A stretch of DNA of 64,000 nucleotides from a bacterium (lineage in GTDB: Bacteria; Hinthialibacterota; Hinthialibacteria; Hinthialibacterales; Hinthialibacteraceae), in assembly GCA_963662285.2 (NCBI GenBank), contig CAXXMV010000002.1, positions 1,568,001 to 1,632,000 on the forward strand, read 5' to 3'. Below the pieces are notes generated by a model. That model searched no databases, was not told the DNA's origin, and saw only the letters and a list, made by a program, of their open reading frames with translations. This document shows positions 23,932 to 60,950 of the stretch, in pieces (the stretch's first letter is position 1; every line of letters begins with the position of its first letter). The position numbers were made by a program, and so were the translations under genes.

Positions 23932-26900
23932 TTAATGGATCATCCACTCACGAACATCCGTCGGGCTGCTTACATCAATAACTTGTATGCTAACAGATGT
24001 AAGTTGAATCTGACCATCATTAATTTGCGTCATTTCCTCATCGATGTTGATCAGAATTGATCCTACCGCATTTTCCTTTCTGTCGAATTTGACCAGGATC
24101 AAATCACTCGCGCCTTCACCCAGGGGCGCCATCAAGGCGCCTGCTATTATGAAGCGGCCTGGTTCGAGGTTATTGGTGACTATCATGCCGTTGGGGATCA
24201 GCCATTGGGTTTCTGGTTCGTCTACGTTTACTTGGGATGGATCGTAGCGCAGGACGAGACGGACTCCGCTGAGTTGATCTGCATTGTCAATTTTGAAATT
24301 GATAAAATATGAATCGCCGACCGTATCTACTGAAACGCTCATGGTTCTCGCAACGCTGCGCATACCGACTTTGCCCGCTGGCAGTGGAGCATCCGGCCCC
24401 CAATCGTCGTGATCGGTATCTGCGGGGAACCAATCAATCAACAGAGCGTATTGCTGCATGATCAGTGAGGCGTCTACGGTTCCGGCAATATCATCGTTAT
24501 TTACATCAGCTGCGGCGGGGAAATTGAGCCACGGGTGGATCGGGTCTGGATAGTATTCGGGATACTGCGCAACCGGATAACCGGGGAAAGCATCGACCAA
24601 TTCAGCGTCGAATTGCAGCAGCAGCGATGCATCAACCGAACCGGCCTGCGCGTTGTCATTCAAGTCGCCCCACATAAACGGGATGTAGATTTTGGTTACG
24701 TAATACTGAGGCGCGGAGGTTTCAACTCCTCCATTAGCGGTTCCGCCTCCGTCATTCATCACCACTGTTGCGCTGACGACGCCATGCGCTCCAACGTATG
24801 GCGTGAACTGTAATGCGCCTGACGCGTCTATGGTCGGCGTAGCGGAGAATATTTCGGCTTGTTCCGTCTGAACTATGAAAGAGGGAACCTGGCTAGATTC
24901 GTTGGGCGGCCCAACATTGATTCCCGTAATCCAGTTATACAATGTATGCTGACCGCCAGTGGCGTTGAGCACAACCGGCGTCGCTCCAACGATGAATGAA
25001 GGCTGGTCGTTGACCGGCAAAATTTCTATGGTGAAATGATATGGCGTTGACTGGTCGATTCCACCATAGGCCGTCCCGCCGTCGTCATGCAGAATGGCGG
25101 TAGCATCGCAGACGCCAAACGCATTTGCAGAGGGAGTATAATACAATGCGCCCGATATCGGATCGATCCAGGGAGATTCTGAGAATAAACCGGGATTGCT
25201 GTTATCGACGGTGAAATAGACCGATTGTCCTGATTCACTTGATGGCCCCGGCTCGATATTGGTAGCCCAATTAGCATGATTTATTTGCGGAGAATCTTCC
25301 AGCGCGATCTGATTAGGGCCGCCGTCAAAGGTTGGCGGTTGGTTTGGTCCGAGAACAGTTGCATTCCAGATATCCGCCTTAAAAGCCATGGCGTCTTCGT
25401 TGAGGCTGGTCAGGGGATTAAATGAAATAGTGATATTTTCGAGAGATGTAAAACTATCTTCTACATGAACCTGAAATTTCATAAGCGTTGCAGAATCACT
25501 GGAAATTGCTCCGCTGGCGCTGGCGCATGCAAAAATGGCAAGCGCCGGATTGGAGTCATTAACAAATATGGGGCCCCAGCCCGTTTCAGTTGATGTACCA
25601 ACCTTGGTCGCCGAACCGGGGACGTAAGTCACCTTGTTTGGATCAAGGTCCAGGGCGACGCGGTAGCCCACGGTAGAAGAGATATTGTTGGTTAACCGTA
25701 TGGTCAACTCTATGTTCTGATCAGGATTGACGGTAATGTCATCTGGTTCCAACGATAATTCGGGAATTGTAAAAGCATAGACCGAACCTGCATCAACGAC
25801 TCCATCAACATTATCAAGGCGGGCGCTAACCAGCGCGATGCCTCCAGAGAGTGTAACCACTCCAAACAAGTCGTTAGTTCCAAGATCATCGGGTTCCAGA
25901 ATAAGATTCGGGTAATGGATGCTTTGACTTTCCCAACCTGAATCCGGTTTTCTAAAAAGATACGCTATACCCTTTGAAGCATAGGTCGGGGCGCCGATAA
26001 GGACTGCATTATCATCAATTGAATTTGAATACCCGAACTTACCTCCAACAGCGCTGGACGGGTCTTTTTGTAATTGAGCGGTCTCCGTCATATCCGTCCA
26101 GCCGCTTGCGGGCTTCTCAAAAAGATATGTCGTGTTTTCATCAACAGAGGAATCACTGGCCGCTGATACGATGACAGTATTATTATCAATTGCAACATCG
26201 TAGCCGAACTGATCACCGGTTATGCCATCAGAAGCCGTTAAGGTCGCATCGGGGAACAAGGTTCCAGACCACCCGCCGCCTGGTTTAACAAATATATATG
26301 ACTTGCCATTGCCCGAATCATCAACTTGAGGAGAACCAATGACGACTGTATCTCCTGATATATCTACTTCCCAACCAAATTCATCTTTAGATTGCAGACC
26401 AATGACTGATAACGACGCATTCTCAGTAAGCGTTCCAGACCATCCCGTTATAGGTTTTTGGAATATATAAGCGCCCCCGGCGTCACTATTTTCCCCATAG
26501 GCGCCAATAACAACTGTGTCGCCAGACATCGATACTGATTTCCCAAAATCATCATTTCCGGGAAAAGTTGATAACAAGGTTGCATCTGCTATCAAGGTTC
26601 CAGACCAACCGCCCGAAGGTTTAGTAAAGATATATGCATATCCCTTGTAATTAACCGTATTCTTTTTATATGGAACTCCAACGCAAATCACATCACTGGA
26701 AATGGCGACGGCGCGTCCAAATTGGTCATTCGTAACAGGAGAGGGATTAATCAGGGTTGCGGATTTTATCCAATCGCCATTGCTCCGGGTATACACATAC
26801 GCTATTCCGGCATTTATTATGGTATTGAAATCCTTGAGAGGTTCACCGATTACCGCGATATCGCCTTCAATTGACAACTCATGACCGAACCGGGCGTTGG

Positions 26901-27042
26901 TCTCAGGAGGATCGGAAAGAATCTTTAAATCGGGCGCTATTATTTCCGCATCACAATATGCTGACAATGAAAAACTCAAAACCATTGTAAGGCATATAAT
27001 TGAAATTCTCATAAATTCATATTTTTCGATCTTTGAGATCAT
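23932..27042 (-). CDS. Array gene 6 (first transcribed): secreted 7x FG-GAP (integrin-alpha-like) propeller + diverged constant body + C-terminal TDVREWMIH tail
   Basis: Seven 'FGxxVxIxGDxxVIG' repeats; body homologous to, but more diverged than, copies 1-5; extra C-terminal extension. Start 27042 or 27060. Confidence 0.88.
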   Translation of the reverse strand: MISKIEKYEFMRISIICLTMVLSFSLSAYCDAEIIAPDLKILSDPPETNARFGHELSIEGDIAVIGEPLKDFNTIINAGIAYVYTRSNGDWIKSATLINPSPVTNDQFGRAVAISSDVICVGVPYKKNTVNYKGYAYIFTKPSGGWSGTLIADATLLSTFPGNDDFGKSVSMSGDTVVIGAYGENSDAGGAYIFQKPITGWSGTLTENASLSVIGLQSKDEFGWEVDISGDTVVIGSPQVDDSGNGKSYIFVKPGGGWSGTLFPDATLTASDGITGDQFGYDVAIDNNTVIVSAASDSSVDENTTYLFEKPASGWTDMTETAQLQKDPSSAVGGKFGYSNSIDDNAVLIGAPTYASKGIAYLFRKPDSGWESQSIHYPNLILEPDDLGTNDLFGVVTLSGGIALVSARLDNVDGVVDAGSVYAFTIPELSLEPDDITVNPDQNIELTIRLTNNISSTVGYRVALDLDPNKVTYVPGSATKVGTSTETGWGPIFVNDSNPALAIFACASASGAISSDSATLMKFQVHVEDSFTSLENITISFNPLTSLNEDAMAFKADIWNATVLGPNQPPTFDGGPNQIALEDSPQINHANWATNIEPGPSSESGQSVYFTVDNSNPGLFSESPWIDPISGALYYTPSANAFGVCDATAILHDDGGTAYGGIDQSTPYHFTIEILPVNDQPSFIVGATPVVLNATGGQHTLYNWITGINVGPPNESSQVPSFIVQTEQAEIFSATPTIDASGALQFTPYVGAHGVVSATVVMNDGGGTANGGVETSAPQYYVTKIYIPFMWGDLNDNAQAGSVDASLLLQFDAELVDAFPGYPVAQYPEYYPDPIHPWLNFPAAADVNNDDIAGTVDASLIMQQYALLIDWFPADTDHDDWGPDAPLPAGKVGMRSVARTMSVSVDTVGDSYFINFKIDNADQLSGVRLVLRYDPSQVNVDEPETQWLIPNGMIVTNNLEPGRFIIAGALMAPLGEGASDLILVKFDRKENAVGSILINIDEEMTQINDGQIQLTSVSIQVIDVSSPTDVREWMIH

Positions 27043-27427
27043 GATAATTATCCCTTTCATATTTCCGGTTCATGGCTGGATCGTAAACATGGATATCTAT
27101 AAAAAAATGATAAATTCGATGCTTACGAACCAATGCGATATTGTTCTGATTTTTTAATAATTATGGGTATAACAAAATAAGTAAAATAGGAAACAGAGGA
27201 GAATATTTGGTGAAAGCCAGCCCCATTTTATTAAGTAATGGTTAATACAGAGATCTAATTTAACGCCTAAACGTATCAATCGCAAAAATAATACTAGATT
27301 AATAGAACGAAATAGTGCAAAATTATACAAAAACGTAAAGAATACAGAATCACTAATAATATATATTTTATAATATAAGTAAATATTTTAGTCAAGAGCA
27401 ATTATATAAATTAACTATAATTTAATC

Positions 27428-27455
27428 TTTAGTATTTAGTATTTAGTATTTAGTA
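27428..27455. repeat. Heptamer tandem repeat (TTTAGTA)x4 in the AT-rich divergent promoter region
   Basis: Four perfect copies read directly. Confidence 0.9.
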
Positions 27456-27631
27456 TGTATAAGGTTGTAAAGTTAGATTATTATTAATAGAAGTGTTCTG
27501 ATTTTCGGAGCAAACGCACCAAGAAGTAAACTTTGGTCTAAGATTTGGATTTGTATTAGAACGCCTTCCGGAATCATATTCATTATCAATATCATATATT
27601 CTCGCCCTCTCTCACCTTATCATAAATATGC

Positions 27632-27730
27632 CAACAATTGTGTTGCCAACAAAATTGTTGCAGAAATATATTGACAAACTCGATACACCGATGTATTATA
27701 CCAACATAATTGTTGCCAACAGATTTGTTG
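27632..27730 (+). promoter_or_regulatory. Sigma70-type promoter flanked by four CAACA-N4-TGTTG operator palindromes
   Basis: TTGACA 27671-27676, 17-bp spacer, TATTAT 27694-27699; palindromes at 27632-45, 27647-60, 27702-15, 27717-30. Confidence 0.8.
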
Positions 27731-27742
27731 GAGGTGAATGAA

Positions 27743-28672
27743 ATGAGTACTCAACCAAAGAAACTTAAACAGGCGTGTGGAAATTGGGTAACTGGCGAAC
27801 GATTTTGGGATCGTAAAGAAGATATTGCTTTATTAATGGATCGCATCTCACAAGGCGCTCATCTAAATATGGTTGCTCAACGCCGCATGGGCAAGACCAG
27901 CCTGATGAAAGAAGTCGCTGAACGCTTTAAGGATCATTATATCTGTCTCTTTGTTGATTTCCAGAAATCTAAAGACGCCCCCGACGCGATTGCTGAACTG
28001 AGCCTTGCTCTCCAACCATATACGCCTCTATTCAACAGAATTAAGAAGATTTTCTCTAATGTATTCAATCATGTCGAAAAAATCGGGTATGGGGATATTG
28101 GAATTACCCTTCGCTCTGGATTAACCGCAGGAACCTGGCCAGATAAGGGAGATAAACTCTTCAATATACTGGCCGCTGCCGAGAAACCTGTCCTGCTCTT
28201 ACTTGATGAAGTACCCATATTGGTAAATCGAATGCTCAAAGATGACGATTCCAAAATTACCCCGGAACGGAGAGCGCAGACGGACGAGTTTATGTCGTGG
28301 TTGCGCCACAACAGCATTACCCATAAAGAGAAAGTACGCATTGTACTCTCTGGCAGCATAGGTTTTGAGCCGGTTCTGAATCAAGCCAACCTAAGCGCTA
28401 CGATCAATAATTTCGTTCCTTTCGAATTAAAACCTTGGCCGAACGAATCGGCCATCGCTTGTATCGAAGCTTTGGCGAATGAGAGCGGCGTGATATTTGA
28501 GGATGGCGCACCTGCCGAAATGGTGAAGAAACTAGGTTGTTGCATTCCTCATCATGTTCAGATGTTTTTCTCCCGCGTATATGACCGTTGCAAGCGGCGA
28601 AATAAGATGCACGTCTTAAAAAAGAGATCAGGGACATTTATAAAAACGAAATGCTTGGTACGCGAGGATTAG
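27743..28672 (+). CDS. P-loop ATPase (STAND/AAA-like), N-terminal part of a frameshifted gene
   Basis: 'FWDRKED', Walker A-like 'AQRRMGKTS', Walker B 'LLLLDE', 'IVLSGS'; SD GGAGGTG before ATG 27743. Confidence 0.8.
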   Translation: MSTQPKKLKQACGNWVTGERFWDRKEDIALLMDRISQGAHLNMVAQRRMGKTSLMKEVAERFKDHYICLFVDFQKSKDAPDAIAELSLALQPYTPLFNRIKKIFSNVFNHVEKIGYGDIGITLRSGLTAGTWPDKGDKLFNILAAAEKPVLLLLDEVPILVNRMLKDDDSKITPERRAQTDEFMSWLRHNSITHKEKVRIVLSGSIGFEPVLNQANLSATINNFVPFELKPWPNESAIACIEALANESGVIFEDGAPAEMVKKLGCCIPHHVQMFFSRVYDRCKRRNKMHVLKKRSGTFIKTKCLVRED

Positions 28673-28989
28673 TAGAATTGACTCACTATGAGGAACGTCT
28701 TAAAAGCGTACTCGACGCGGATCGCTTCACCCTGGCTATATCTATGCTTTCAGAAGCGGCGGTCGTTGGTAAATTAACGCGCGAAGCCTTGGCCGCTCTG
28801 CAAGATGAATTTTCATTTTCCGATAAAAATACAACCGGGATTCAACGGGAAATATTGCAGGTTCTCGAACACGATGGTTATCTTGAACAACGCCCTAGAG
28901 GTTATGTCTATGTTTCCAAGCTGTTGCGTGATTGGTGGAAACAGCGTTATGAGAATTTTTATACTCCAATCCTATCGAAGAAAGCGTAA
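28618..28989 (+). CDS. C-terminal (winged-helix-like) part of the ATPase in the -1 frame
   Basis: Open -1 frame KKEIRDIYKNEMLGTRG...LQVLEHDGYL...YVSKLLRDWW, typical ending of this ATPase type; joins the upstream frame at A_AAA_AAG (28618-28624). Confidence 0.7.
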   Translation, partial: KKEIRDIYKNEMLGTRGLVELTHYEERLKSVLDADRFTLAISMLSEAAVVGKLTREALAALQDEFSFSDKNTTGIQREILQVLEHDGYLEQRPRGYVYVSKLLRDWWKQRYENFYTPILSKKA

Positions 28990-28992
28990 ACC

Positions 28993-31215
28993 ATGCCTAC
29001 TAAAATAATGAAATATAATCCCGCCTTTCTGAGCGAGAAGGAACTGATCGACTCGTTCGTAGTGCGTCATACTGATTTTGAACTTATTACTGATATTGTG
29101 CGTGATAACGTTGATCCGTCTAATCAGCATGTTTTGGTGATTGGTCCGCGCGGTATCGGCAAGACTACCCTGGTTTTGCGCGTGGCCGCTGGAATTTCGC
29201 AGGATAAGGAACTCTCTGAACAATGGTATCCGCTGGTGTTCGGCGAAGAGAGTTACGGGGTGTGCACGCCGGGGGAATTCTGGCTGGAGGCGCTTTTTCA
29301 TCTGGGTCGGCAAACCGGGGAAGCGCGTTGGGAAAAGACTTACAATGAACTGCGTGAGATTAAAGATGAAGATACGCTCCGTGAAAGCGCCCTGGCCCAG
29401 CTGATGGATTTCGCCGATGAAAAGAACAAGAGGATTTTGCTGATCGTCGAAAATCTTCATCAATTACTCGGCGACCAGATCAGCGACGACGAGGCCTGGA
29501 CGCTGCGCCATACCCTGCAGCACGAACCGCGCGTCATGATACTGGCCACCGCCACTACCCGCTTTGAAGAGATCGAAAACCAGGGTAAAGCCATGTTTGA
29601 ACTCTTCAAGACGCATGACCTCAAACCGCTGGACACCGATGACTGCCGGAAAATATGGCAAGCCAACACCGGCAACGCATTCGACAACGAGTTAATCCGC
29701 CCCATCCAGATTCTGACCGGAGGCAACCCACGGCTTATCACTATTATTTCCCAATGCGCCAAGGATATTTCCCTGCAAAACCTTTTGGAAAACCTGATTG
29801 AGCTGGTGGACGACCATACCGAATATTTCAAAACCCATCTGGATAACCTGGCGCCGGTTGAGCGCAAGGTGTATCTGGCGCTGGCCGAAATCTGGGAACC
29901 GGCCACCGCCAAAGACGTGGCCGCCGCCGCCCGTCTGGATGTTAACAAAACCAGTTCTCTGCTGGGCAGACTTATAAAAAATGGCGCCGCCGTGGTTATA
30001 GACGACCGCAAGCGCACTAAGAAATATTACGTAGCCGAACGGATGTATAACATCTACTACCTGATGCGAAGAAGAGGCGGCCCCTCCAGCCGGGTCAAAG
30101 CGGTCATACGTTTTCTGGTTCCCTTTTATGGGCATAAAAAAACATTGGAACTTATCACAGACGAAGCATGCCGCCTCTCACCCGAATTACGTAAAGATCA
30201 TTATGCAGCGTATGAAATCCTACTTGATGAGAGTCCTGATAAGTTACGAAAAGAGTTATTGAAATCTACGCCCGCTCAGTTTATTGAAGCGGAAGATATT
30301 CCCGATGCGCTTAAGAAGCGAATTACATCCGAACTTAAAAACGATTCTGATTATAAAGTTAAAGAATTAAGATTGAAATCTAATGAGTTATTTAACAAAG
30401 GAGACTATAAACAAGCAGAAAAAATTGAAAGACAGATTATTAATATTTATCCAGATAAAGAAAGCGCTTGGTACAATCTAGGTTTATTGTTAAAGAATCA
30501 AAAATGCTATGAAGAAGCTGAAAAAGTATATCGCAAAGCTATCACGATAAAACCGGATTACGTTAATGCCTTGTACAATCTAGGAGTATTGTTATATGAT
30601 CAAAGGCGCTATGACGAGGCAGAAAAATTATATTGCAAAGTAATCGCTTTAAAACCTAGTTACATAGATGCTAGGCTATATCTAGGCTTATTGCTATATA
30701 AACAGAAGCGTTATGACGAATCTAAAAAAGCATATATCGAAGTTCTTGAGATACAACCTGATAACATTAATGCCTGGAACAATCTTGCCTGTCTTTTCCT
30801 TGAAACCAAAAGATACGAAGAAGCCGAAATGTATTCCAGGAAGTCATTGGAACTTTCACCTGACAATTCTACTTTTAAACATACACTGGCATTGATATTA
30901 GTTGAGATAGGCAAGATTGATGAAGCGTTTGAATTGACCAAATCATTGATTAATGATGCTGCATTGATTGATGATTTTAACAATGATGTTAATGAGTTAA
31001 TTATTGCGCTTGCTGCGAAGGGGGGGGCTACTCAGTCTATTGAAATTCTGCAAGACTCTTGCTGCGCTGAGAAGTTGGAGCCTTTGATTGTTGGTTTGCG
31101 TTTGTATATGGGTGAGGATGAGCGGGATATCCGGACACCTTTGGAGGTTTTAGAAATTGGGAAGGATGTTAGGAAGCGGATTGAAGAGCGTATGGCGAGT
31201 GGAGATAATGATTAA
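28993..31215 (+). CDS. ATPase + winged HTH + TPR-repeat protein
   Basis: Walker A 'GPRGIGKT', 'LLIVEN', 'LTGGNPR', HTH 'ATAKDVAAAARLDVNKTSSLLGRL', TPRs 'AWYNLGLLL', 'ALYNLGVLL', 'AWNNLA'. Confidence 0.88.
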   Translation: MPTKIMKYNPAFLSEKELIDSFVVRHTDFELITDIVRDNVDPSNQHVLVIGPRGIGKTTLVLRVAAGISQDKELSEQWYPLVFGEESYGVCTPGEFWLEALFHLGRQTGEARWEKTYNELREIKDEDTLRESALAQLMDFADEKNKRILLIVENLHQLLGDQISDDEAWTLRHTLQHEPRVMILATATTRFEEIENQGKAMFELFKTHDLKPLDTDDCRKIWQANTGNAFDNELIRPIQILTGGNPRLITIISQCAKDISLQNLLENLIELVDDHTEYFKTHLDNLAPVERKVYLALAEIWEPATAKDVAAAARLDVNKTSSLLGRLIKNGAAVVIDDRKRTKKYYVAERMYNIYYLMRRRGGPSSRVKAVIRFLVPFYGHKKTLELITDEACRLSPELRKDHYAAYEILLDESPDKLRKELLKSTPAQFIEAEDIPDALKKRITSELKNDSDYKVKELRLKSNELFNKGDYKQAEKIERQIINIYPDKESAWYNLGLLLKNQKCYEEAEKVYRKAITIKPDYVNALYNLGVLLYDQRRYDEAEKLYCKVIALKPSYIDARLYLGLLLYKQKRYDESKKAYIEVLEIQPDNINAWNNLACLFLETKRYEEAEMYSRKSLELSPDNSTFKHTLALILVEIGKIDEAFELTKSLINDAALIDDFNNDVNELIIALAAKGGATQSIEILQDSCCAEKLEPLIVGLRLYMGEDERDIRTPLEVLEIGKDVRKRIEERMASGDND

Positions 31216-31461: not shown

Positions 31462-31481
31462 TCCCGTCTACAAGTAATACA

Positions 31482-31735
31482 AAAGGCTATGAAGAGGAGT
31501 AGTAAGTGGATTATCGGGAATCAAGAGAGCTGGTGGTTGCTGCAAACCAGTATCCCGAAACGCTGAACTCGCCTTGGAGCTGTCTCTGCGAAAGCCGCAT
31601 CAGCGGTTAATAGTCGGGATCGGAACGCGACCGTTATAACGCGGAAACGAGGGCGGCAAAATCATCGCCGCTAAAACAGGGTGGTACCACGGGTCAATTC
31701 AACGCCCCGTCCCTGATCAGGGACGGGGCGTTTTT
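31482..31735 (+). ncRNA. T-box riboswitch (leucine, CUC specifier) with terminator
   Basis: 5' GCTATGAAGAGGAGTAGTA, AG box/distal loop AGAGAGCTGGTGGTTGCTGCAAACCAG, GAA-CTC specifier (31568-70), CCGTTA, T-box AAACAGGGTGGTACCAC (31674-90), terminator AACGCCCCGTCCCTG-at-CAGGGACGGGGCGTTTTT; upstream of leuA. Confidence 0.92.
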
Positions 31736-31908: not shown

Positions 31909-33447
31909 ATGAGTGAGAAAATTATAATCTTTGATACTACCTTGCGTGATGGAGAGCAGGCCCCTGGATTCAGTATGAATATACCTGAGAAGGTTGAACT
32001 GGCCTTCCAGTTGCAGCGCCTGGGGGTTGATGTTATAGAAGCGGGTTTCCCTATCTCATCACCGGGAGATTTTGAATCGGTCAAAGCCATCGCCCAAAAA
32101 GTTGATGGACCGCAAATCTGCGGCTTGTGCCGCGCTATGGAGAAAGACATTGACTGCTGCTGGGAAGCTGTGAAATATTCCAAGCATCCACGCATTCATA
32201 CATTTATTGCTACCAGTCAGATTCACATGGAGAAAAAACTGAAAAAATCCCAGAAAGAAGTACGGGATTATGCAGTTAAAGCAGTGCAACACGCCCGTAA
32301 ATATACCGAAAATGTAGAATTCTCCACCGAAGACGCCGCCCGCACCGACCGGGATTATATCTGCGAAGTGGTCGAGGCCGCTATCGACGCCGGCGCCACC
32401 ACTATAAATATTCCTGATACAGTCGGGTATTCCAATCCCTGGGAATACGGCGCATTGATCGAATATGTATTTGAAAAGGTTCCCAATGTCGGGCAAGCAG
32501 TCATCAGCGTCCACTGCCATAACGATTTGGGCTTGTCGACCGCTAATTCATTGGCCGCCATCCTCAAGGGCGCTCGTCAGATCGAGTGTACTATCAATGG
32601 AATCGGGGAACGCGCCGGTAACGCCTCGTTGGAAGAGGTTGTTATGAATATCAAAACCCGCGCTGATTTCTTCGGGTTCCATACTGATATCAAAACCGAG
32701 CATATCTATCCCGCCAGCCGTATGTTGACCCGCTTCACCGGAATCGGCGTACAGCCCAATAAGGCCATTGTCGGCGCTAACGCTTTCGCCCACGAAGCCG
32801 GGATTCATCAGGATGGCGTCTTGAAAGAGCGCACCACCTACGAAATTATGCGTCCCGAATCAGTGGGTTGGGCCGGACATTCCATGGTTTTGGGCAAGCA
32901 CTCAGGCCGTCACGCTTTCGTAACCAGTATGAAAGACCTGGGCTTCAGTTTGGAAGGCGAAGAATTGGAAAAAGCCTTTGAAGCATTCAAAGCGTTGGCC
33001 GACGCCAAAAAGACTGTCTTTGATGAAGACTTGCTGGCTATCGTCGATGAACAATCGCGCTCTGAAGATCAAGTAAAATACATCCTGGAAGACCTGGAAA
33101 TTAAAATCGATAAAAACGACAAGCCGTCCGCCACGGTGAAGATCCGATCCAATGGCGACATCATTGAAGGCAGCGGTTCCGGCGATGGCGCCCTGGACGC
33201 CGCTTATTCTGTTATCAAAAAGTTGACCGGCCTGGAAGACGCCGTGTTGGTTGATTATCGCGTAGGAGCAGTCACTATTGGAACCGACGCTCAGGGATCG
33301 GCTAATGTGGTCATTAAAAATCAAAATAAACAGTACATAGGGCGGGGAACTGACACCGATGTTATCCGCGCCAGCGTTAAAGCGTTTATCAATGCAGTTA
33401 ACAAGTGCTGCATTGAAGAAGAAAAAGAACATGATCCGGCTGTATAG
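31909..33447 (+). CDS. leuA: 2-isopropylmalate synthase
   Basis: 'IFDTTLRDGEQAPG', 'HCHNDLGL', 'NGIGERAGNA', 'AHEAGIHQDG', 'LGKHSGRHA', C-terminal regulatory domain. Confidence 0.97.
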   Translation: MSEKIIIFDTTLRDGEQAPGFSMNIPEKVELAFQLQRLGVDVIEAGFPISSPGDFESVKAIAQKVDGPQICGLCRAMEKDIDCCWEAVKYSKHPRIHTFIATSQIHMEKKLKKSQKEVRDYAVKAVQHARKYTENVEFSTEDAARTDRDYICEVVEAAIDAGATTINIPDTVGYSNPWEYGALIEYVFEKVPNVGQAVISVHCHNDLGLSTANSLAAILKGARQIECTINGIGERAGNASLEEVVMNIKTRADFFGFHTDIKTEHIYPASRMLTRFTGIGVQPNKAIVGANAFAHEAGIHQDGVLKERTTYEIMRPESVGWAGHSMVLGKHSGRHAFVTSMKDLGFSLEGEELEKAFEAFKALADAKKTVFDEDLLAIVDEQSRSEDQVKYILEDLEIKIDKNDKPSATVKIRSNGDIIEGSGSGDGALDAAYSVIKKLTGLEDAVLVDYRVGAVTIGTDAQGSANVVIKNQNKQYIGRGTDTDVIRASVKAFINAVNKCCIEEEKEHDPAV

Positions 33448-34467
33448 GGTGGCTTCGGTGGCTACGCTTCGCTTTTAGCCCACCCTGCGTTTGAGTGGAG
33501 TGGTTTGATTTCGGAGGTGGTTTTCAAGGGTAGAAAAAACACTACCCTTGGCGCCCGAACCGAAGAAAAAGAACATGATCCGGCTGTATAGGGTGGCTTC
33601 GGTGGCTACGCTTCGCTTTTGCCCACCCTGCGTTTGAGTGGAGTGGTTTGATTTCGGAGGTGGTTCTCAAGGGTAGAAAAAACACTACCCTTGGCACCCG
33701 TACCGAAGAAAAAGAACATGATCCGGCTGTATAGGGTGGCTTCGGTGGCTACGCTTCGCTTTTGCCCACCCTGCGTTTGAGTGGAGTGGTTTGATTTCGG
33801 AGGTGGCTTTCAAGGGTAGAAAAAACACTACCCTTGGCGCCCGTACCGAAGAAAAAGAACATGATCCGGCTGTATAGGGTGGCTTCGGTGGCTACGCTTC
33901 GCTTTTAGCCCACCCTGCGTTTGAGTGGAGTGGTTTGATTTCGGAGGTGGTTTTCAAGGGTAGAAAAAACACTACCCTTGGCGCCCGTACCGAAGAAAAA
34001 GAACATGATCCGGCTGTATAGGGTGGCTTCGGTGGAGGGCTACGCTTCGCTTTTAACCCACCCTGCGTTTGAGTGGAGTGGTTTGATTTCGGAGGTGGCT
34101 TTCAAGGGTAGAAAAAACACTACCCTTGGCACCCGTACCGAAGAAAAAAAAGAACATGATCCGGCTGTATAGGGTGGCTTCGGTGGAGGGCTACGCTTCG
34201 CTTTTAACCCACCCTGCGTTTGAGTGGAGTGGTTTGATTTCGGAGGTGGTTCTCAAGGGTAGAAAAAACACTACCCTTGGCGCCCGAACCGAAGAAAAAG
34301 AACATGATCCGGCTGTATAGGGTGGCTTCGGTGGAGGGCTACGCTTCGCTTTTGCCCACCCTGCGTTTGAGTGGAGTGGTTTGATTTCGGAGGTGGCTTT
34401 CAAGGGTAGAAAAAACACTACCCTTGGCACCCGTACCGAAGAAAAAGAACATGATCCGGCTGTATAG
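33418..34467 (+). repeat. Tandem array of 7 units (143-151 bp) bounded by 8 copies of the last 30 nt of leuA; each unit holds two REP-like palindromes
   Basis: GAAGAAAAAGAACATGATCCGGCTGTATAG copies end at 33447, 33591, 33734, 33877, 34021, 34172, 34320, 34467; intervening DNA near-identical. Confidence 0.95.
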
Positions 34468-34528: not shown

Positions 34529-34536
34529 GTTGCTTA

Positions 34537-40880: not shown

Positions 40881-41807
40881 TTAATGAATCTCCCAATTCA
40901 TGACGTCAGTCGGGATGGCGAAAGTGGCTGTGGTCCATCTGGCATCGGTGTCGCCGTCGCCTACCCACATCATTTGAGAGTCATAACCTCCCGCTGCTAG
41001 ATCTGTATCGATGCACAAATGGGTAAAACTCATTGAACTTCCTGCAAGAGGCGTGGGAAGCATGGGATTCCAGCCTAATTGATCCATAAGGTCATAATCA
41101 ATTTCAGCCGGCAGAGGATCTGGATCGCTGTAATACTTGCTTCTTTCAATCGAATCCCAGCTGATTTTGGCTTCGATGGTGTATTTACCTTCTTCTACTA
41201 TTACTACGACTTCCCATGCTTCGTTTACTTCTCCACGAACTACGGTTCCATCTTCGAGAGTTTTATCGGCTACATCAGAACGATTGCCCAGCCGGGTTCC
41301 GACGCACCATCTTCTGGTTGTTTCAACGGTTTGGTCTTCCGTTGCGCCAATGGCGATGATCATTTCGCCGGGCAGCCACTGGTTGTCGGCTTCATAATCC
41401 TGGAAAAAGTCGGGGTATAGTAAAATTTCCTGCTCAGGATTATTGGTGAAATCGATGAACCACTGCACTCCATCTCGTTCCCACCATTGGGCTGGTATTG
41501 TACTATCGACGTGGGAGATCACGTCATCTTCCACTACGGCGGCGCAGTACAGGGCTTCATCGTTGTACATCATGGCGAATGTGCAGACCGTGTCGGGATC
41601 ATTCCAGTTTGTACCGAAGGTATCCACAACGCTGTCTTTATCATAGGTTACCCATTCGGCATTGTTCCAGTCGCCGACATCGCCGTCAATGGCGGGGCCG
41701 CCGGTGAATTGAATGGTGTATTGGGGAGCGTCAGGATTTTGCGCCCAAACTGACATTCCACAGATAACCGCTAAAAACAATACTGACAACTGCAAAAATT
41801 TTTTCAC
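40881..41807 (-). CDS. Secreted CBM9/DOMON-like sugar-binding protein with C-terminal TDVMNWEIH tail
   Basis: 'PAIDGDVGDW', 'YNDEALYCAAVVEDD', 'WERDGVQWFID', 'YTIEAKISW'. Start GTG 41807 after AAGGAG. Confidence 0.75.
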   Translation of the reverse strand: MKKFLQLSVLFLAVICGMSVWAQNPDAPQYTIQFTGGPAIDGDVGDWNNAEWVTYDKDSVVDTFGTNWNDPDTVCTFAMMYNDEALYCAAVVEDDVISHVDSTIPAQWWERDGVQWFIDFTNNPEQEILLYPDFFQDYEADNQWLPGEMIIAIGATEDQTVETTRRWCVGTRLGNRSDVADKTLEDGTVVRGEVNEAWEVVVIVEEGKYTIEAKISWDSIERSKYYSDPDPLPAEIDYDLMDQLGWNPMLPTPLAGSSMSFTHLCIDTDLAAGGYDSQMMWVGDGDTDARWTTATFAIPTDVMNWEIH

Positions 41808-47627: not shown

Positions 47628-49088
47628 TTATTTGCTTAATTCCCAGTTAGTTACGTCGGAACTGGCTCTTGTTTCGGCGTTGAATTGGGCGGCTACTTCT
47701 TCGGCGGTTAGAGCGCCGTTATAGATGCGGGCATTATCTATGTATCCTGCCCAATTTTCACCGGCTGCGGCTTGGTTATCGCCGCCAAAGAAGAGAGGTT
47801 GAGGATCATATAATGCCTGAGCAATGGTTCGCATTCCGGCTTCTTCGCCATTGCGGTAATAGGTAAGCAAATTCCCGCTTTTGACTACTACGTGATGCAG
47901 CCATACGTTATTAGGAATGTCTTCATAATCCAGGTTGTCGTCGCCGTTGCCTTCGGTGTGCCATTCAAATTTGGTCGGGGTGAACTTAATGAATTGGCGT
48001 GGAACGAAATCAACCTTTTCGATGCTTACGCGGTTTCCAAAGATAATCTGATTTTCGGTGTTGCCTTCGGCTTGTTTCGCCCAGAATGACCATGTGAAAT
48101 CATTTTCTAATGTCATAACTGGAATAATGGCATCACCAGCTAATACATAAGAGCTTTCAGCTGTGCCATCGGAACTAATGACTGAGTCACGCTCGGAGTC
48201 GTTAACCCATGCTGAGCCGCCTTCACCTAGACCATTACCTACGTTATTGACGGTTCCATCGTTGCCATTTCCGCTGGAGTCGGCAGCCACTTCGCCATTG
48301 CCTTCTTCAAATTCCCAAAATCCGATCAATTCGGCTGGAGCGCCAGCTGATTCATAATTAAATAGAGCAGCGACGTCATCAGCGGATACAGCGTAGTCAT
48401 AGATGCGGACGTTATCAATATATCCAGCCCAGTTTTCACCAGCTGCGGCTTGGTTGTCGCCGCCGATGAATAGAGGTTGTGGATCATATAAAGCCTGGGT
48501 GATTACTTGAGATCCGGCTTCTACGCCATCGCGGTAATAGGTAAGCAAATCAGCTGCTTTGACAACTACATGATGAATCCATACATCGTTGGGAATATCT
48601 TCGTAATCCAGGTTGTCGTCGCCATTGCCTTCAGTGTGCCATTCAAATTTGGTTGGAGTAAATTTGATGAATTGGCGAGGGACGAAGTCAACCTTTTCGA
48701 TGCTCATACGGTTTCCAAGGATAATATCATTGTCACCATTACCTTCGGCCTGTTTAGCCCAAAATGACCACGTAAAATCATTTTCTAAGGTCATAACTGG
48801 AATAATCGCATCGCCAGCCAGTGCATATGCTCCTACGTCTAAGCCATTGAAACTGATGACGGATCCCCGTTCAGGATCAACTACCCATGCTGCGCCGCCA
48901 TCACCTAAACCCTGATCCAGGTTAAAGATGGTTCCATTGTTATCATTGGTGCTGGAGTCAGTAACCGAATTGCCTGACCCTTCATTAAATCCCCAAAAAC
49001 CAAGCAAATCGGCATTAGCGCCAATTGGCAATAAGAAAAGAGCTGCGAGTAAACCGAGTACTAAAGTTGAATGTTGTTTCTTGTTCAT
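47628..49088 (-). CDS. Secreted protein with two LamG-like (concanavalin A/Laminin_G_3) domains and C-terminal SDVTNWELSK tail
   Basis: Duplicated 'LxGFWxFxEGxG...DSSxN', 'FTWSFW', 'WxHHVVV', 'YIDNxRIY' domains. Confidence 0.85.
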   Translation of the reverse strand: MNKKQHSTLVLGLLAALFLLPIGANADLLGFWGFNEGSGNSVTDSSTNDNNGTIFNLDQGLGDGGAAWVVDPERGSVISFNGLDVGAYALAGDAIIPVMTLENDFTWSFWAKQAEGNGDNDIILGNRMSIEKVDFVPRQFIKFTPTKFEWHTEGNGDDNLDYEDIPNDVWIHHVVVKAADLLTYYRDGVEAGSQVITQALYDPQPLFIGGDNQAAAGENWAGYIDNVRIYDYAVSADDVAALFNYESAGAPAELIGFWEFEEGNGEVAADSSGNGNDGTVNNVGNGLGEGGSAWVNDSERDSVISSDGTAESSYVLAGDAIIPVMTLENDFTWSFWAKQAEGNTENQIIFGNRVSIEKVDFVPRQFIKFTPTKFEWHTEGNGDDNLDYEDIPNNVWLHHVVVKSGNLLTYYRNGEEAGMRTIAQALYDPQPLFFGGDNQAAAGENWAGYIDNARIYNGALTAEEVAAQFNAETRASSDVTNWELSK

Positions 49089-54585: not shown

Positions 54586-54650
54586 GATTATTTTCCCCTT
54601 TATTCCCGTAGGGTGGGTCGCGTTTTATGACCCACCGGATTAATCAATTA

Positions 54651-55808: not shown

Positions 55809-55872
55809 ATTCCACTCTCCCCGTCTTGATGGTAATTGGATTGTCTCATGAGGGATGGTATTTCGTCAACCT

Positions 55873-56143
55873 TATTGGTTAAGTCGATACGTCTTGTCGT
55901 GTAAAATATTGCTAACATTGGAGATGAGTTTCTTCCTGGACGTTCTGGATACTGCGCTTGAGATTTAGCCTAAGGAATATTTAATAGTGATAAAGGCTCT
56001 CGATTTACATGTTACGAATTCACGGAGTTACTAGAAAACAATGTAATTCTAATCAGTATAGATGGATGAGGCAGTGCGTTTGATAATATTTTCTTCGAGC
56101 GGCTTTGGCGAACGGTTAAGAACGAGGGAATATACCTAAAAGA
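55873..56143 (+). pseudogene. Degenerate IS3-family transposase (integrase core) fragment
   Basis: Hand translation YWLSRYVLS...TLEMSFFLDVLDTAL.. / IFNSDKGSRFT...ISIDG*GSAFDNIFFERLWRTVKNEGIYL, matching the IS3 pattern IFNTDQGSQFT...ISMDGxGxxxDNIFIERLWRSVKYE, with stops and a frameshift. Confidence 0.8.
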
Positions 56144-56431
56144 AACCTTTTTTTAATCAATCCTCTCCCGGAAGCGCATTTTTTGATTGAAACTTTTTTA
56201 AACAACGGTACGTTAAACCAATAATTATTTCAAATATTAGATAATAATACAAAAGTTGACCTTTTTTGTAAAATAGTAATATCAATCATGAAGATGCTCT
56301 GGTATAATGTCTCTAAGGGCTTTGATTTATTAATATTATCTGTTTTTCAATTATTTCGGGATGACGAATTTAACTCTTTTAGTTCTGTAATATAACCATT
56401 AAGTATTATGCTTTAATAAGGTTTTTAGTAG

Positions 56432-58672
56432 ATGAAGATTTCATTATCAAAATCCTTTAGGCGTACAATGGGAATTGCACCAATATTTGCAATCTTTGTA
56501 TTTTATCTTGTCTCACCAATATTAGCTTGGAATAATCATGATTATCAATTTTCGCCCTCATTTAATACTCATCATAATTCACGTTTAATCCAAATATCGA
56601 ACATAACCGATAGTCAACCACAAAATGATCACAAACAGATTGATCCAGAAACTTATGTATTACCATATCATGTCTATTTAACTCTAAAATCATTATTTCT
56701 TCTGTTTTTGATTATATTATTAAGTATTTTGTTTTACAAAAACCATCAGCTCCACAACCAAAACAATCATCTACTTAAAGAAGAGAACCGTTATCGCGCA
56801 ATTCTTGAAAATCAGGAAGATATGCTGTGCCGTTTCTCACCCGATTTCACCTTAACATTTGTAAATGATAAGGTCTGTGATTTTTTCGAAAAAGATAGGA
56901 ATGATCTGATTGATAATGATTTCTGGCCGTTGATCCCTCATATTGATAAGGAAATTGTCTATAACCAGATCAAATCGATTACGCCGGAAAATCCCACTAC
57001 AACATTAGACATCCCCATGATTCGACCTAACGGCGATATGTGCTGGTATCGCTGGTCGGCTTTCGCAATTTATACATCTGATGGAACAATCCATCATTAT
57101 CAAGCAACCGGACGCAATATCCACGATTTGAAAAACTCCCAGGATGCGCTCATCCAAATGAAAGAGGAAGCGGAAAGCGCCAATAAGGCCAAAAGCGATT
57201 TTCTGGCCCGCATGAGCCATGAGTTGCGCACTCCGCTTAATTCCGTAATTGGATTCGCTTCACTGCTTATAAAGAATAAGCAGAACAACTTAAGCGGTAA
57301 AGATGTTAATTTTCTGGGCCGGATTCAGAATAACGGTAAACACCTTCTTAGCCTGATTAACCAAATCCTTGATCTTTCCAAGATTGAGTCCGGTCGGATG
57401 GATTTTCATGAATCCACCGTTCATCTTAATAAGCTGGTTTGGGAAATACTCGATCAATTTGAACATCAGATTCGAAGTAAAAAAATTGAAATTCACTGTG
57501 ATATTCCCGAATCAATCATTCCCATTAAAACCGATGAAGGAAAATTGAAACAAGTGCTTTTCAATCTGCTGGGCAATGCGATCAAGTTTACCGAAAAGGG
57601 CAGCATCATGGTACGCATCACGGTCCACCAGAATACGCATTTACCTATCCGGCTGGAAGTTATCGATACCGGAATAGGCATCCCCCAAGAACAACTTTCA
57701 GAAATTTTCGAGCCTTTCTGTCAAGCGGATTCCAGTACCAGCCGTCAATATGAAGGAACCGGACTTGGTCTGACTATTTCTCAATCGCTCTGTAATTTGC
57801 TGGGCTTCGAAATTGAAGCGGAAAGTAAATTGGGTGAAGGATCATGTTTTCGTATTATTATGAATCCAGAACCTTCAGTTATTGATTACGTTGACCAGTT
57901 TGATGTCGGTGATTTTCAATTCGCCTATTCTCACAATTCAGTACTGTCCAATAAAACCGTCTTGATAGTGGATGACGAACAAGACGCCATCCTTCTATTG
58001 CAACACACTATTGAAGAATTCGGTTGCATGACAATAGTTGCCGACTCAGGTATGAAAGGCTTGAAACTGGCTGAAGAACATCATCCTGATCTCATCTTAA
58101 TGGATGTCTTAATGCCGGAAATGAATGGATGGGAATTTTTAATAAACATAAAAAGCGACCCCAAGTTATCTGATATTCCGGTAATCGTAGTCAGCGTCGT
58201 CGCCAGCGATCTTCGAGGCGTCTCCCTTGGCTTGGTCGACTTTCTCGACAAACCGGTTAAACCGGATGAACTCTACAAACTCGCCTGCAAGAATCTACAA
58301 AGAAAAAGGGGACGCGCCCTTCTCGTCAAAGTGGATAATGCTGATCGCAGTTTAACCAAATTGCTTTTGGAAAAAGAAGGTATTGAACTTTTACTGGCAT
58401 CCAACCAGGAAGAAGCTCTACATATCATCAATTCCGAATTATTGGATCTAATCATCGTCGACTCGTCAGCGCTTGACCAGGATGGCTCTATAGTGCTTCA
58501 AACAGTCCGGCAAGACATGCGTTTTCATGCTCTACCGATGATTATCACTGTCAACCGGGATTTACATGAAGATGAAATCCGACACCTCAATATCACCGAT
58601 CACATTCTCCACAAAGACAATGGCTACGAAGATGAACTCAAATCTACTATCGATAGAGTCTTTACCATGTAA
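56432..58672 (+). CDS. Hybrid sensor histidine kinase (TM, PAS, HisKA, HATPase, two receiver domains)
   Basis: 'FLARMSHELRTPL', 'NLLGNAIKFT', 'DTGIGI', 'GTGLGL', 'LIVDDE...DLILMDVLMP'. Confidence 0.93.
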   Translation: MKISLSKSFRRTMGIAPIFAIFVFYLVSPILAWNNHDYQFSPSFNTHHNSRLIQISNITDSQPQNDHKQIDPETYVLPYHVYLTLKSLFLLFLIILLSILFYKNHQLHNQNNHLLKEENRYRAILENQEDMLCRFSPDFTLTFVNDKVCDFFEKDRNDLIDNDFWPLIPHIDKEIVYNQIKSITPENPTTTLDIPMIRPNGDMCWYRWSAFAIYTSDGTIHHYQATGRNIHDLKNSQDALIQMKEEAESANKAKSDFLARMSHELRTPLNSVIGFASLLIKNKQNNLSGKDVNFLGRIQNNGKHLLSLINQILDLSKIESGRMDFHESTVHLNKLVWEILDQFEHQIRSKKIEIHCDIPESIIPIKTDEGKLKQVLFNLLGNAIKFTEKGSIMVRITVHQNTHLPIRLEVIDTGIGIPQEQLSEIFEPFCQADSSTSRQYEGTGLGLTISQSLCNLLGFEIEAESKLGEGSCFRIIMNPEPSVIDYVDQFDVGDFQFAYSHNSVLSNKTVLIVDDEQDAILLLQHTIEEFGCMTIVADSGMKGLKLAEEHHPDLILMDVLMPEMNGWEFLINIKSDPKLSDIPVIVVSVVASDLRGVSLGLVDFLDKPVKPDELYKLACKNLQRKRGRALLVKVDNADRSLTKLLLEKEGIELLLASNQEEALHIINSELLDLIIVDSSALDQDGSIVLQTVRQDMRFHALPMIITVNRDLHEDEIRHLNITDHILHKDNGYEDELKSTIDRVFTM

Positions 58673-58782
58673 TTTTAATGATAGATCGGTAAAGCATAGC
58701 CTATCCACGATATGGGCATTAAGTTTCATGCTGAATTCATCTATCTTGGAGGATAGGATTGCTAAAATGGAGAGAACGCCTT

Positions 58783-59364
58783 GTGAAGTTAACCGTAAGA
58801 AATAGAAACTATGCTTTCACTCTTATAGAATTGCTCATTGTCGTCGCCATTATCGGGATTCTTGCAGCTATTGCTGTTCCCAATTTTATGAATGCCAGAA
58901 CGCGAGCCATGGTGGCCCGATGTTACTCCGACATTCGTACGCTGGGGAGCGCTTTTGGAATGTACCAGATTGATAACAATTCCTATCCCAAAGGCGATGA
59001 TCTGTGGTACACCAACCAAATGTATCCCCGCCTTACAACTCCAATTGCTTATATTTCATCAATTCCCGTGGATCCTTTTGTTGTAAAGGACGATCCGCAA
59101 AGGCCTTTGTATCACAGCCTTTTTTACCCATGCTGGAATATTAATACAATGGTTATCTTACAGAATAAAACATGGGGCGGCATACCGGTTCGAAACGCCG
59201 TCAGTCAGGGTACGCATATATTAATCGTCAGTTCCGGCCCTGATAAACACGAGGATATTGCATCTCAATCAACGGGCGCCCTTACTTATCATATGTCAAA
59301 TGGTTTGATTTCAGAGGGTGACATTATCCGGTATGTTCCCGGAAATCAACAAGACGCTTTTTAA
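58783..59364 (+). CDS. Prepilin N-methylation domain protein (GspG-like pseudopilin)
   Basis: 'AFTLIELLIVVAIIGILAAIAVPNF', 'YQIDNNSYP', 'LTTPIAYI...DPF', 'SSGPD'. Start GTG 58783 or 58759. Confidence 0.88.
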   Translation: MKLTVRNRNYAFTLIELLIVVAIIGILAAIAVPNFMNARTRAMVARCYSDIRTLGSAFGMYQIDNNSYPKGDDLWYTNQMYPRLTTPIAYISSIPVDPFVVKDDPQRPLYHSLFYPCWNINTMVILQNKTWGGIPVRNAVSQGTHILIVSSGPDKHEDIASQSTGALTYHMSNGLISEGDIIRYVPGNQQDAF

Positions 59365-59367
59365 TCC

Positions 59368-59402
59368 AAAAAAAAGGCGGTCTCATAAAGAAACCGCCTT
59401 TT
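59368..59402. terminator. Bidirectional intrinsic terminator
   Basis: AAAAAAAAGGCGGT ... ACCGCCTTTT between convergent genes. Confidence 0.7.
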
Positions 59403-59459
59403 ATTACAAGATATAGATAATAACGATTACTGCAATAACCAATCGTCAAGTTATAACGA

Positions 59460-60950
59460 TTAATGCAACGACCATTCGCTAACTGAAGTTCCTCCGGTGG
59501 ATAGTACTAGATCTCCGTAGGTTATTTCGCTGTGCGCTCTGCCGCACCAGCTCAATTGAGCCTGACGGTCCATACCATCATCGTCGTTAACGCCAACCGT
59601 AAAGCCCATAGTCGTCAGATCGGTCCCCAGAGTGGCTTTTGGAATCTTGAATTCCACTTGATAGCCAGTGCTGGTTGTGCTGGTCGCTGCAAACCAATCA
59701 GCGTCCGCTCCGAAAACCGGATCGTTGGCTTCTACGTCTCGCCAGGCGCCGTTGGGGGTCAACACGAATTGCCCTTCGAATTGCAGTACGCCGCGTCCGG
59801 TGTCGTTACTGTCGTCGGCGTCAAAGAAGATTTCCACCGAGTCGTCTTCCCAGGTAGAGGCGTTTTCATTTCCAGCTTCAGCGCTGTCAGTAGAAATGAT
59901 GTCGTCAATAACAGTAACTCCCACGTAAATGGCGTCGGCATCGTGAACCACCTGGAAGGAATAATCATGATCCCCCAGCGCCCAACCATCATCGCCTGAC
60001 GGGATATCATACACTCCGGTGAAGGTGGTTACTTCCGCTTTCGGTGCGCCGGCGTATTCGTCGGCGCCGATGGTTCCGTCAACTGTAGGAGCGGCGGCTT
60101 GAGGCGCGACGTAGGTTTTTTTGCCCAACAGCAGGTTGCCGTAAGTCATTTCTACATGAGTGTTGCCAGACCAGACATACTGGTTTTCTACTGAACTGCC
60201 GCCATCGTCGTCGTCATTGATGCAGACGTCAAATCCGATGATATCGCCGGGTTGGGGATCGCCCAGGATACTTAGACTAATCCGGAACTCAGCGTCGTAG
60301 GCGGTACCCGCGTCATTCATTTGAGCTTGTGCGTACCAGGCTGCGTCAGGTCCGAATCCGGGGTTGCCCGCTTCGGCTTCTCGATAGGCGTTGTTGAGAG
60401 TGATGACGTACTGTCCGCCCGTCGACCATCCCTCAGGTTTCTCGCCCGCCGTATCCCGGACTTCGTAGTTGCTGTTGTCGCCGTCGACGAAGATTTCCAC
60501 GCTATCGTCTTCCCATGTGTTACCGTTCTGAGATTCGGCCGCAGCGGTGTCGTCGTATAGGATATCGTCGGTAACGCGCACCGCTACATAGAGATATTCA
60601 TCATCGTAACCGACAAATATCATGGCGCCGAAATCCTCGGTATATAGTGGACCTTGTCCGCCATTGTCGATGTGGGCGCCGCGGGTGTAATCGTCTTCCA
60701 GCCCGGCTTTAAACTCGTGCTGCTTATCGATGTTGTCGTCGAACTGGATAGCCCAATATGAATTTGTTCCATCACCGTAGGAACCACCAGCCCACATCCA
60801 TTCTTCCGGTTCAATTACGCCGTCAATAGTCGGCGGCTGTGGAAGTTCAAAAGCCATTTGAGTCTTGGTTTCATCATAAGTCGTCCGGTCAGCCATCGCA
60901 AAACCAGACGCCAACATAAGAAACGCTAATACAAATATACCCTTTCGCAT
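59460..60950 (-). CDS. Secreted protein with two CBM9/DOMON-like domains and C-terminal TSVSEWSLH tail
   Basis: Two domains with 'PTIDG', 'YDDEYLYVAVRVTDD', 'WEDDSVEIFxD', 'IGFDVCINDDD'. Confidence 0.85.
   Translation of the reverse strand: MRKGIFVLAFLMLASGFAMADRTTYDETKTQMAFELPQPPTIDGVIEPEEWMWAGGSYGDGTNSYWAIQFDDNIDKQHEFKAGLEDDYTRGAHIDNGGQGPLYTEDFGAMIFVGYDDEYLYVAVRVTDDILYDDTAAAESQNGNTWEDDSVEIFVDGDNSNYEVRDTAGEKPEGWSTGGQYVITLNNAYREAEAGNPGFGPDAAWYAQAQMNDAGTAYDAEFRISLSILGDPQPGDIIGFDVCINDDDDGGSSVENQYVWSGNTHVEMTYGNLLLGKKTYVAPQAAAPTVDGTIGADEYAGAPKAEVTTFTGVYDIPSGDDGWALGDHDYSFQVVHDADAIYVGVTVIDDIISTDSAEAGNENASTWEDDSVEIFFDADDSNDTGRGVLQFEGQFVLTPNGAWRDVEANDPVFGADADWFAATSTTSTGYQVEFKIPKATLGTDLTTMGFTVGVNDDDGMDRQAQLSWCGRAHSEITYGDLVLSTGGTSVSEWSLH

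Follow-up and report, generated by a model that had tools for sequence, protein, structure and literature searches.

A short C-terminal tag on unrelated secreted proteins of Hinthialibacterota-type and Sumerlaeota-type bacteria, a candidate signal for surface sorting

Four secreted proteins encoded in a 64,000-nucleotide stretch of a Hinthialibacterota genome (GenBank assembly GCA_963662285.2, contig CAXXMV010000002.1, positions 1,568,001 to 1,632,000 of the forward strand; hereafter the window, in whose numbering all coordinates are given) end in closely similar C-terminal tails of nine or ten residues. From its recurrence, its cargo and the signals that take its place in homologues, the tail is on balance probably a lineage-restricted C-terminal tag that marks Sec-exported proteins which are to be delivered to the outer membrane or the cell surface, or tethered there. 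Its consensus, as read from the tails collected here, is T-[DSP]-V-x-[EDN]-W-x-[LI]-[YFH]-COOH.

All four tails are present and all four carrier genes lie on the minus strand. P1 (23932..27060, 1042 aa) is a secreted protein of FG-GAP repeats (Pfam FG-GAP_2, 181 bits) with a weak cohesin match just below the cut-off (Pfam Cohesin, 23.2 bits); it ends in TDVREWMIH, the nine codons of which occupy 23935..23961, followed by the stop codon at 23932-23934. The secreted P2 (40881..41888) possesses a CBM9 module (Pfam CBM9_1, 41.6 bits) and the tag TDVMNWEIH (40884..40910, stop codon 40881-40883). Its listed open reading frame (ORF) comprises 335 aa, with relatives aligning from query residue 42-44 onwards, and the true start is probably a GTG near 41807, just ahead of the signal peptide. 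The secreted P3 (47628..49088, 486 aa) contains two Laminin_G_3 (LamG) stretches (Pfam, 144 bits) and ends in the degenerate, tag-like tail SDVTNWELSK (47631..47660, stop codon 47628-47630), which closes on S-K instead of an aromatic residue or His and has its core shifted by one residue relative to the other three. P4 (59460..60950, 496 aa), likewise secreted, carries two CBM9 stretches (Pfam CBM9_1, 122 bits) and the tag TSVSEWSLH (59463..59489, stop codon 59460-59462). Each tail follows a linker of 1-4 residues rich in Ser/Thr/Pro/Gly (SSP in P1, P in P2, RASS in P3, STGG in P4), and a crude heuristic recognises signal-peptide-like N-termini in all four carriers. P2 and P4 are distant homologues via CBM9 (BLASTP E = 2e-4); otherwise the four carriers fall into separate BLAST clusters. 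An earlier reading of the letters alone, here called the sequence-only reading, had reported the four tails at these positions, the short linkers ahead of them and the absent or distant homology of their bearers, and each of these was found as described. One of its four examples, the P3 tail, is degenerate and poorly conserved within its own family.

The recurrence that this reading had noticed is real and far above chance. The pattern V..W.[ILM].{1,2} stands at the end of only these four among 162 six-frame stop-to-stop ORFs of at least 80 aa, and all 5894 stop-to-stop segments yield four further matches, in ORFs of 12-56 aa. Within the 30 gene-like proteins of the window (18,821 residues) the core V..W.[ILM] occurs four times, every time at the C-terminus, with 0.0125 such ends expected from composition (P for four or more about 1e-9). 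A repeated DNA element as source of the tails is ruled out, because synonymous codons differ among the four tails and the DNA 3' of the stop codons is unrelated. The tail is conserved at the protein level, not at the DNA level.

Relatives of three carriers (P1, P2 and P4) retain the tail, down to 37% identity, and the tail of the LamG carrier family decays. Among the 120 best listed homologues of P4, 52 possess a C-terminus of the form W-x-[LIVM]-[YHF], most commonly as G-G-T-x-V-x-[ED]-W-S-L-Y; one of its relatives, P0018, is a paralogue with 58% identity and a tag ending in F. The host genome probably has further carriers beyond the window. For P1 there is one close orthologue (P0242, 81% identity), which keeps the tail with G at position -5 and L at -2. 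In a search of 1.84 billion representatives, both full-length relatives of P2 (P0361, 64% identity, and P0363, 37%) bear tag-like tails. The sequence logo comprises 54 database tails selected by the regular expression W-x-[LIVM]-[YHF], and positions -4, -2 and -1 are therefore fixed by selection, with W at -4, L at -2, and Y at -1 commoner than F or H. At the free positions, T occupies -9 in 36 tails, V or I occupies -7 in 51, and E, D or N occupies -5 in 48; S, D or P is found at -8 and mostly S at -3.

The tag is an add-on, present on P1 and absent from five paralogues with the common module. These five secreted proteins are encoded in tandem on the minus strand (3032..22589) and possess a C-terminal module about 42% identical to that of P1; they stop about 15 residues earlier, and only P1 bears the extension of about 15 aa that holds the tag.

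As an observation in its own right, the 3' parts of the five tandem genes, which contain a cohesin-type module, are about 88-96% identical in DNA, and their N-terminal halves differ (Kelch, beta-helix/propeller, LRR, FG-GAP, and one with a cohesin match only). This suggests recent duplication or gene conversion among the five giant genes. Internal repeats of 117 nt and 156/159 nt occur in the same region.

For the distribution of the tag, DNA of one genome per species (185,579 species) was scanned with one strict form, T-D-V-x-[E/D/N/K]-W-x-[L/I/M/F/V]-[H/Y] followed by TAA or TAG, which misses genes ending in TGA. The scan returned 41 matches. Fifteen are of a chance type, located in ORFs of at most 79 aa or in ORFs with in-frame stops, in scattered taxa (Salmonella, Mucilaginibacter, an Archaeoglobaceae metagenome-assembled genome, MAG). 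The other 26 end real-looking genes, whose ORFs either measure 190 aa or more or are truncated at a contig end. By record title, seven of the 26 belong to Sumerlaeota/BRC1 and four to Omnitrophota (one MAG) or Hinthialibacteria OLB16, 14 are named only 'bacterium' or 'uncultured bacterium' with no phylum, and one is a Paraprevotella, a doubtful match with its ORF overlapped by a longer ORF on the opposite strand. OLB16 was formerly assigned to Omnitrophota, according to PMC9324843; Hinthialibacterota and Sumerlaeota are separate phyla in NCBI. The two exact-pattern sites of the window are not among the matches, so the host genome lies outside the scanned collection. Judging from these records, the tag is confined to few lineages, namely Hinthialibacterota-type and Sumerlaeota-type bacteria; the lineage specificity proposed from the sequence alone is thus borne out by the titled gene-ending matches, bar the doubtful Paraprevotella. 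Besides the four copies in the 64-kb window, several MAGs possess 2-3 strict-pattern matches each, and the flanks of the loci contain three further carriers with variant tails. A Sumerlaeota MAG (L014) has three tandem paralogous carriers and another locus (L025) two adjacent ones, their tails varying at -9, -8 and -1, which represents natural variation of the tag.

The cargo is diverse. With the tails removed, 30 carriers form 24 BLAST clusters (E < 1e-5). Twelve of 24 carriers scanned against Pfam matched various families, among them FG-GAP, CBM9, LamG, PIG-L, pullulanase X25, CBM6, fn3 and a PQQ-type propeller with a metallophosphatase; the remaining 12 matched none. An export-type N-terminus, called by a crude home-made heuristic, was found in 15 of 17 N-complete locus carriers versus 26 of 51 neighbour ORFs (p = 0.006). 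The overlap filter left L010 and L012 out of this count; both show export-type N-termini by eye. The sequence-only reading had placed the tail on unrelated proteins with signal peptides, and both the clusters and the N-termini agree with it.

Another explanation gives the tail no function of its own: it would be the last strand of a C-terminal domain that the carriers inherited in common, or its likeness would stem from chance or composition. CBM9 is indeed common to two of the four window carriers, and some locus carriers are paralogous, such as the three tandem copies in L014. Yet the 30 carriers fall into 24 unrelated clusters, the tail stands behind different folds, CBM9, LamG and FG-GAP homologues from other lineages lack it, and paralogues of P1 possess the same module without it. 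Chance is excluded by the probability of about 1e-9 given above, and the 15 scan matches outside these lineages lie in ORFs of at most 79 aa or with in-frame stops. We regard this explanation as most improbable.

The position of the tag is occupied by known sorting signals in homologues of the carriers. A PEP-CTERM-like ending was detected by regular expression in 6 of 120 listed P4 homologues and in 22 of 120 listed P3 homologues. Eight of these PEP-CTERM-like proteins were tested: three (P0064, P0078 and P0127) match the PEP-CTERM model TIGR02595 above cut-off, three more show weaker PEP-CTERM family matches and two show none. Both tested FG-GAP homologues of P1 match the type IX secretion system (T9SS) model TIGR04183 above cut-off (P0255 with 47.6 bits, P0279 with 38.2 bits). 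A third ending, F/Y-F/Y-R-[VAILS] of a longer C-terminal domain, is found in 43 of the 120 listed P4 homologues and 9 of the 120 listed P3 homologues (e.g. P0034, P0055, P0062, P0088). It occupies the position of the tag and of PEP-CTERM, and in four scanned P4 homologues with this ending the last Pfam match is followed by roughly 60-85 residues. No Pfam or NCBIfam model matched this domain, one bearer of which is labelled Verrucomicrobia; it may be another unnamed sorting domain. The presence of PEP-CTERM or a T9SS C-terminal domain where the carriers have their tag supports the earlier interpretation as a sorting signal.

The tag resembles both known signals in part. Like PEP-CTERM, which takes its place in homologues of two carriers (P3 and P4), it stands at the extreme C-terminus of signal-peptide proteins, in several copies per genome and on unrelated cargo; PEP-CTERM, however, consists of a signature motif, a transmembrane helix and an Arg cluster, whereas the tag has nine residues with neither helix nor basic cluster. 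With the T9SS domain, found on FG-GAP homologues of P1, it shares a helix-free C-terminal signal on Sec-exported proteins, in the T9SS case bound for the cell surface, but the T9SS domain is folded (model length 72) and the tag is a linear motif of nine residues.

Eight typical attributes of small C-terminal sorting signals are listed in section 5 of bioRxiv 10.1101/2023.06.07.544157, and homologues from other lineages that lack the signal or bear another are one of them. The tag shows six of the eight: position (in the scan matches set by design, the pattern including the stop codon), several copies per genome, invariant residues, signal peptides on the carriers, unrelated carriers, and homologues with another signal or none. 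The strongly hydrophobic helix stretch and the terminal basic cluster are lacking. Between linker and stop codon there are only nine residues, several of them charged or polar, and the absence of a transmembrane helix described in the sequence-only reading is therefore plain; the tails have Y, F or H as their last residue and possess no Arg/Lys cluster. According to the same text, a membrane helix and a basic cluster are common to small signals of the LPXTG, PEP-CTERM, GlyGly-CTERM and MYXO-CTERM class (bioRxiv 10.1101/2023.06.07.544157). Since the tag has neither of these, it cannot be filed in the small tripartite signal class, though it behaves alike.

No sorting-signal model of NCBIfam release 20 or Pfam, TIGR02595 and TIGR04183 included, matches the four carriers or, even at E <= 10, their last 40 residues taken by themselves, in agreement with the earlier statement that the motif matches none of PEP-CTERM, GlyGly-CTERM and the T9SS C-terminal domain. 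No description of the tail was found in the literature searched, including passages of the phylum papers PMC9324843 and PMC8092238. As far as these sources go, the tag is undescribed.

Under the favoured reading, a tag for delivery or tethering of Sec-exported proteins at the outer membrane or cell surface, the Sec-exported cargo is mostly made up of beta-sandwich and repeat proteins (CBM9, LamG and FG-GAP, besides many without annotation), and the tag is appended after the last domain via a short linker. After export and folding, a receptor would bind the tail, which is flexible and has an aromatic residue or His at its free C-terminus, and would then route or anchor the cargo. The likeliest mode, conjectural at this stage, would be beta-strand augmentation, as with the beta-signal of outer-membrane proteins, and either an Omp85/BamA-type barrel, at its seam, or a PDZ-type pocket may act as the reader. 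The beta-signal consensus is polar-x-G-x-x-[aromatic/hydrophobic]-x-[aromatic/hydrophobic] (section 11 of bioRxiv 10.64898/2026.09.25.754295). Aligned from its Trp, the tag reads T-x-V-x-x-W-x-[L/I] plus one Y/F/H, with a fitting polar position and dyad. In contrast to outer-membrane proteins, the cargo of the tag consists of soluble domains with no barrel family among the Pfam matches, and a flexible linker precedes the motif; neither the full consensus with the dyad at the protein end nor the last strand of a transmembrane beta-barrel was found. A wider proposal, tentative and more likely wrong than right, is that the beta-signal-like tag defines a hitherto unknown outer-membrane sorting route common to Hinthialibacterota and Sumerlaeota, in which folded soluble proteins would be handed to an Omp85/BamA-type barrel or a pseudopilus machine by strand addition of the free C-terminus and then exported or surface-tethered.

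Several observations weigh against the favoured reading or its mechanism. No receptor, protease or transporter was found among the genes of the window or the 59 neighbour ORFs around carriers of 24 related loci, and none of PDZ, peptidase, Omp85 or sortase-type genes recurs there. The checkable parts of the proposal of an export or surface-attachment signal held; export or attachment itself is something we infer, because neither receptor nor machine was found. All established small sorting signals have a membrane helix and a basic cluster; the tag has neither, so an intramembrane sorting enzyme of a known kind cannot be assumed. V or I replaces the Gly of the beta-signal consensus in 51 of 54 tails, the dyad is followed by one residue instead of forming the protein end, and binding to the seam of the cell's own BamA could be harmful. 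Homologues of P3 with 90% and 62% identity have altered tails, for which reason P3 is treated as a degenerate member. One carrier (L024, PIG-L family) has no signal peptide, and another (L040) is interrupted by a run of N, with an export-type N-terminus on its upstream piece. Within the window, signal peptides are not significantly associated with the tag (four of four carriers versus 18 of 26 others, p = 0.27), because 22 of the 30 window proteins look exported or membrane-bound; the enrichment among signal-peptide proteins that the sequence-only reading had proposed as a check thus appears in the related loci but not in the window, and its remark that no cytoplasmic protein of the window ends this way is true but, given those 22 of 30, weak. 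Signal peptides are present on the five tag-less paralogues of P1 as well, and export across the inner membrane therefore does not require the tag. Finally, phyla were taken from record titles, with 14 of the 25 credible loci titled without a phylum, and since only one strict form (T-D-V with a TAA or TAG stop) was scanned, the taxonomic range is a lower bound.

A free, short and exposed tail would also suit a protease. PDZ domains bind free C-termini that end in hydrophobic or aromatic residues. The tail could accordingly be a site for periplasmic C-terminal processing, for a tail-specific protease or for a PDZ-bearing protease of the HtrA type, and serve as a maturation or turnover signal instead of a localisation signal; its hydrophobic or aromatic end with a free carboxylate and the short flexible linker, which would be protease-accessible, fit this explanation. 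PDZ ligands such as the outer-membrane-protein tails sensed by DegS and the substrates of tail-specific proteases share with the tag the free hydrophobic or aromatic C-terminus and strand addition, but they report misfolding or direct proteolysis, and nothing points to a protease for the tag. No S41 or PDZ gene lies near the carriers, in the window or among the 59 neighbour ORFs. Proteolysis moreover leaves unexplained why surface-sorting domains stand at the same position in homologues, and why dozens of stable extracellular-type binding modules should bear a degradation signal. We consider it decidedly unlikely.

The likeness to the beta-signal allows a further explanation, in which the tail mimics this signal against other bacteria, as in lectin-like bacteriocins (Llp): a carbohydrate-binding domain would dock on the target, and the peptide would block the target's BamA. 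In bioRxiv 10.64898/2026.09.25.754295, Llp are described as a lectin-type domain followed by a C-terminal peptide of roughly nine residues. This peptide contains a dyad with Trp and a cap that is aromatic or His, and it pairs with strand 1 of BamA by strand addition. The architecture of the carriers is parallel, with many of them being CBM9 or LamG modules, and the Llp group (LlpA/B, L-type pyocins) shares with them a carbohydrate-binding domain, a peptide of about nine residues, a Trp dyad and an aromatic or His cap. Conservation of the tag is strong, however, whereas Llp peptides are described as hypervariable (same source), act on other cells and belong to MMBL-lectin proteins of Pseudomonas; the carriers comprise many kinds of enzymes and repeat proteins, several per genome, and are diverse as cargo. 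The dyad W-x-[L/I] is present in the tag, but its cap follows directly at +1, compared with +2 in Llp, and Pfam detects no B-lectin domain in the four window carriers. Mimicry of this kind is very improbable.

One gene next to a carrier deserves separate mention. A GspG-like prepilin gene (58759..59364, plus strand; N_methyl 35.2 bits, T2SSG 22 bits) is convergent with P4. It scores 57 bits against the GspG equivalog TIGR01710, below the cut-off of 88.85, and 31.4 bits against the prepilin N-terminal domain TIGR02532, above the cut-off of 16.3. A hairpin terminator (59372..59402, minus strand), with a 13-pair stem followed by a T run, lies between the two genes. Five of 24 related loci (L004, L016, L018, L021, L022) possess a prepilin gene on the strand of the carrier at or near it, in four cases as its immediate neighbour; two of the five prepilin genes begin 28 and 57 bp downstream of the carrier. 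The six prepilins of the window and these loci are 38-45% identical and have a common S-N-G-L-x-S-x-G-D stretch near the C-terminus. The tag might then be recognised as a linear signal by a type II secretion-like or pseudopilus machine, with the cargo docking on GspG-like pseudopilins and being pushed or displayed via a secretin; the prepilin beside P4, the co-directional homologues in five of 24 loci and their membership in one family speak for it. Against it, such prepilin genes (1 of 30 window genes, 5 of 59 neighbour ORFs) may be as frequent elsewhere in these genomes, the window prepilin and P4 are convergent with a terminator between them, and the 24 loci and the window showed neither a secretin nor an ATPase gene close to a carrier. 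Determinants of type II secretion are structural in the prevailing view, as given in the abstract of PMC7949064. Such a machine is an unlikely reader of the tag, and the GspG-like neighbour, called only a weak hint in the sequence-only reading, stays one in view of the convergent genes, the terminator and the five of 24 loci.

Further features of the window touch the tag less directly. Directly downstream of P1 and beside the cohesin-bearing genes, a secreted protein (22961-23947, minus strand) combines a dockerin-type segment (22.3 bits, just under the cut-off) with an FGE-sulfatase domain, which hints at a cohesin-dockerin assembly in the source organism; a second FGE-sulfatase gene (3-719) is cut by the window start. 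Docking of the tag on cohesins was considered and dropped: the window encodes a dockerin protein for cohesin-type modules, and nothing ties the tag to cohesins. T-box leaders are best known from Firmicutes. One (31480-31717, plus strand; Rfam RF00230, 118.6 bits, gathering score 93) is located upstream of a leuA-like gene (31909-33447). A tandem array of a 143-nt unit (33418-34467; 7.2 copies, 96% matches) begins within the last codons of the leuA-like gene and shows neither an Rfam family at gathering score nor a long ORF. Three co-directional genes (27710-31215, plus strand) encode two small proteins without family match and a 740-aa AAA-ATPase with TPR repeats (STAND-like).

New processing enzymes, among them sortase, exosortase, rhombosortase and myxosortase, have repeatedly been reached through short C-terminal sorting signals. 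If the tag is a sorting signal, its presence suggests that two uncultivated phyla, which appear rich in polysaccharide-binding surface proteins, possess a receptor or translocon not recognised so far, and the tag would provide a simple rule for predicting the surface proteome of both. Linear signals by which folded proteins are moved or anchored at a Gram-negative outer membrane are rare, and the tag would be one of them. The resemblance of the tag to the beta-signal raises the testable question whether BAM-type machines are usable by soluble cargo. Should the more tentative proposal of a common outer-membrane route be true, the tag would provide folded periplasmic proteins with a signal for secretion or display that is linear and transplantable.

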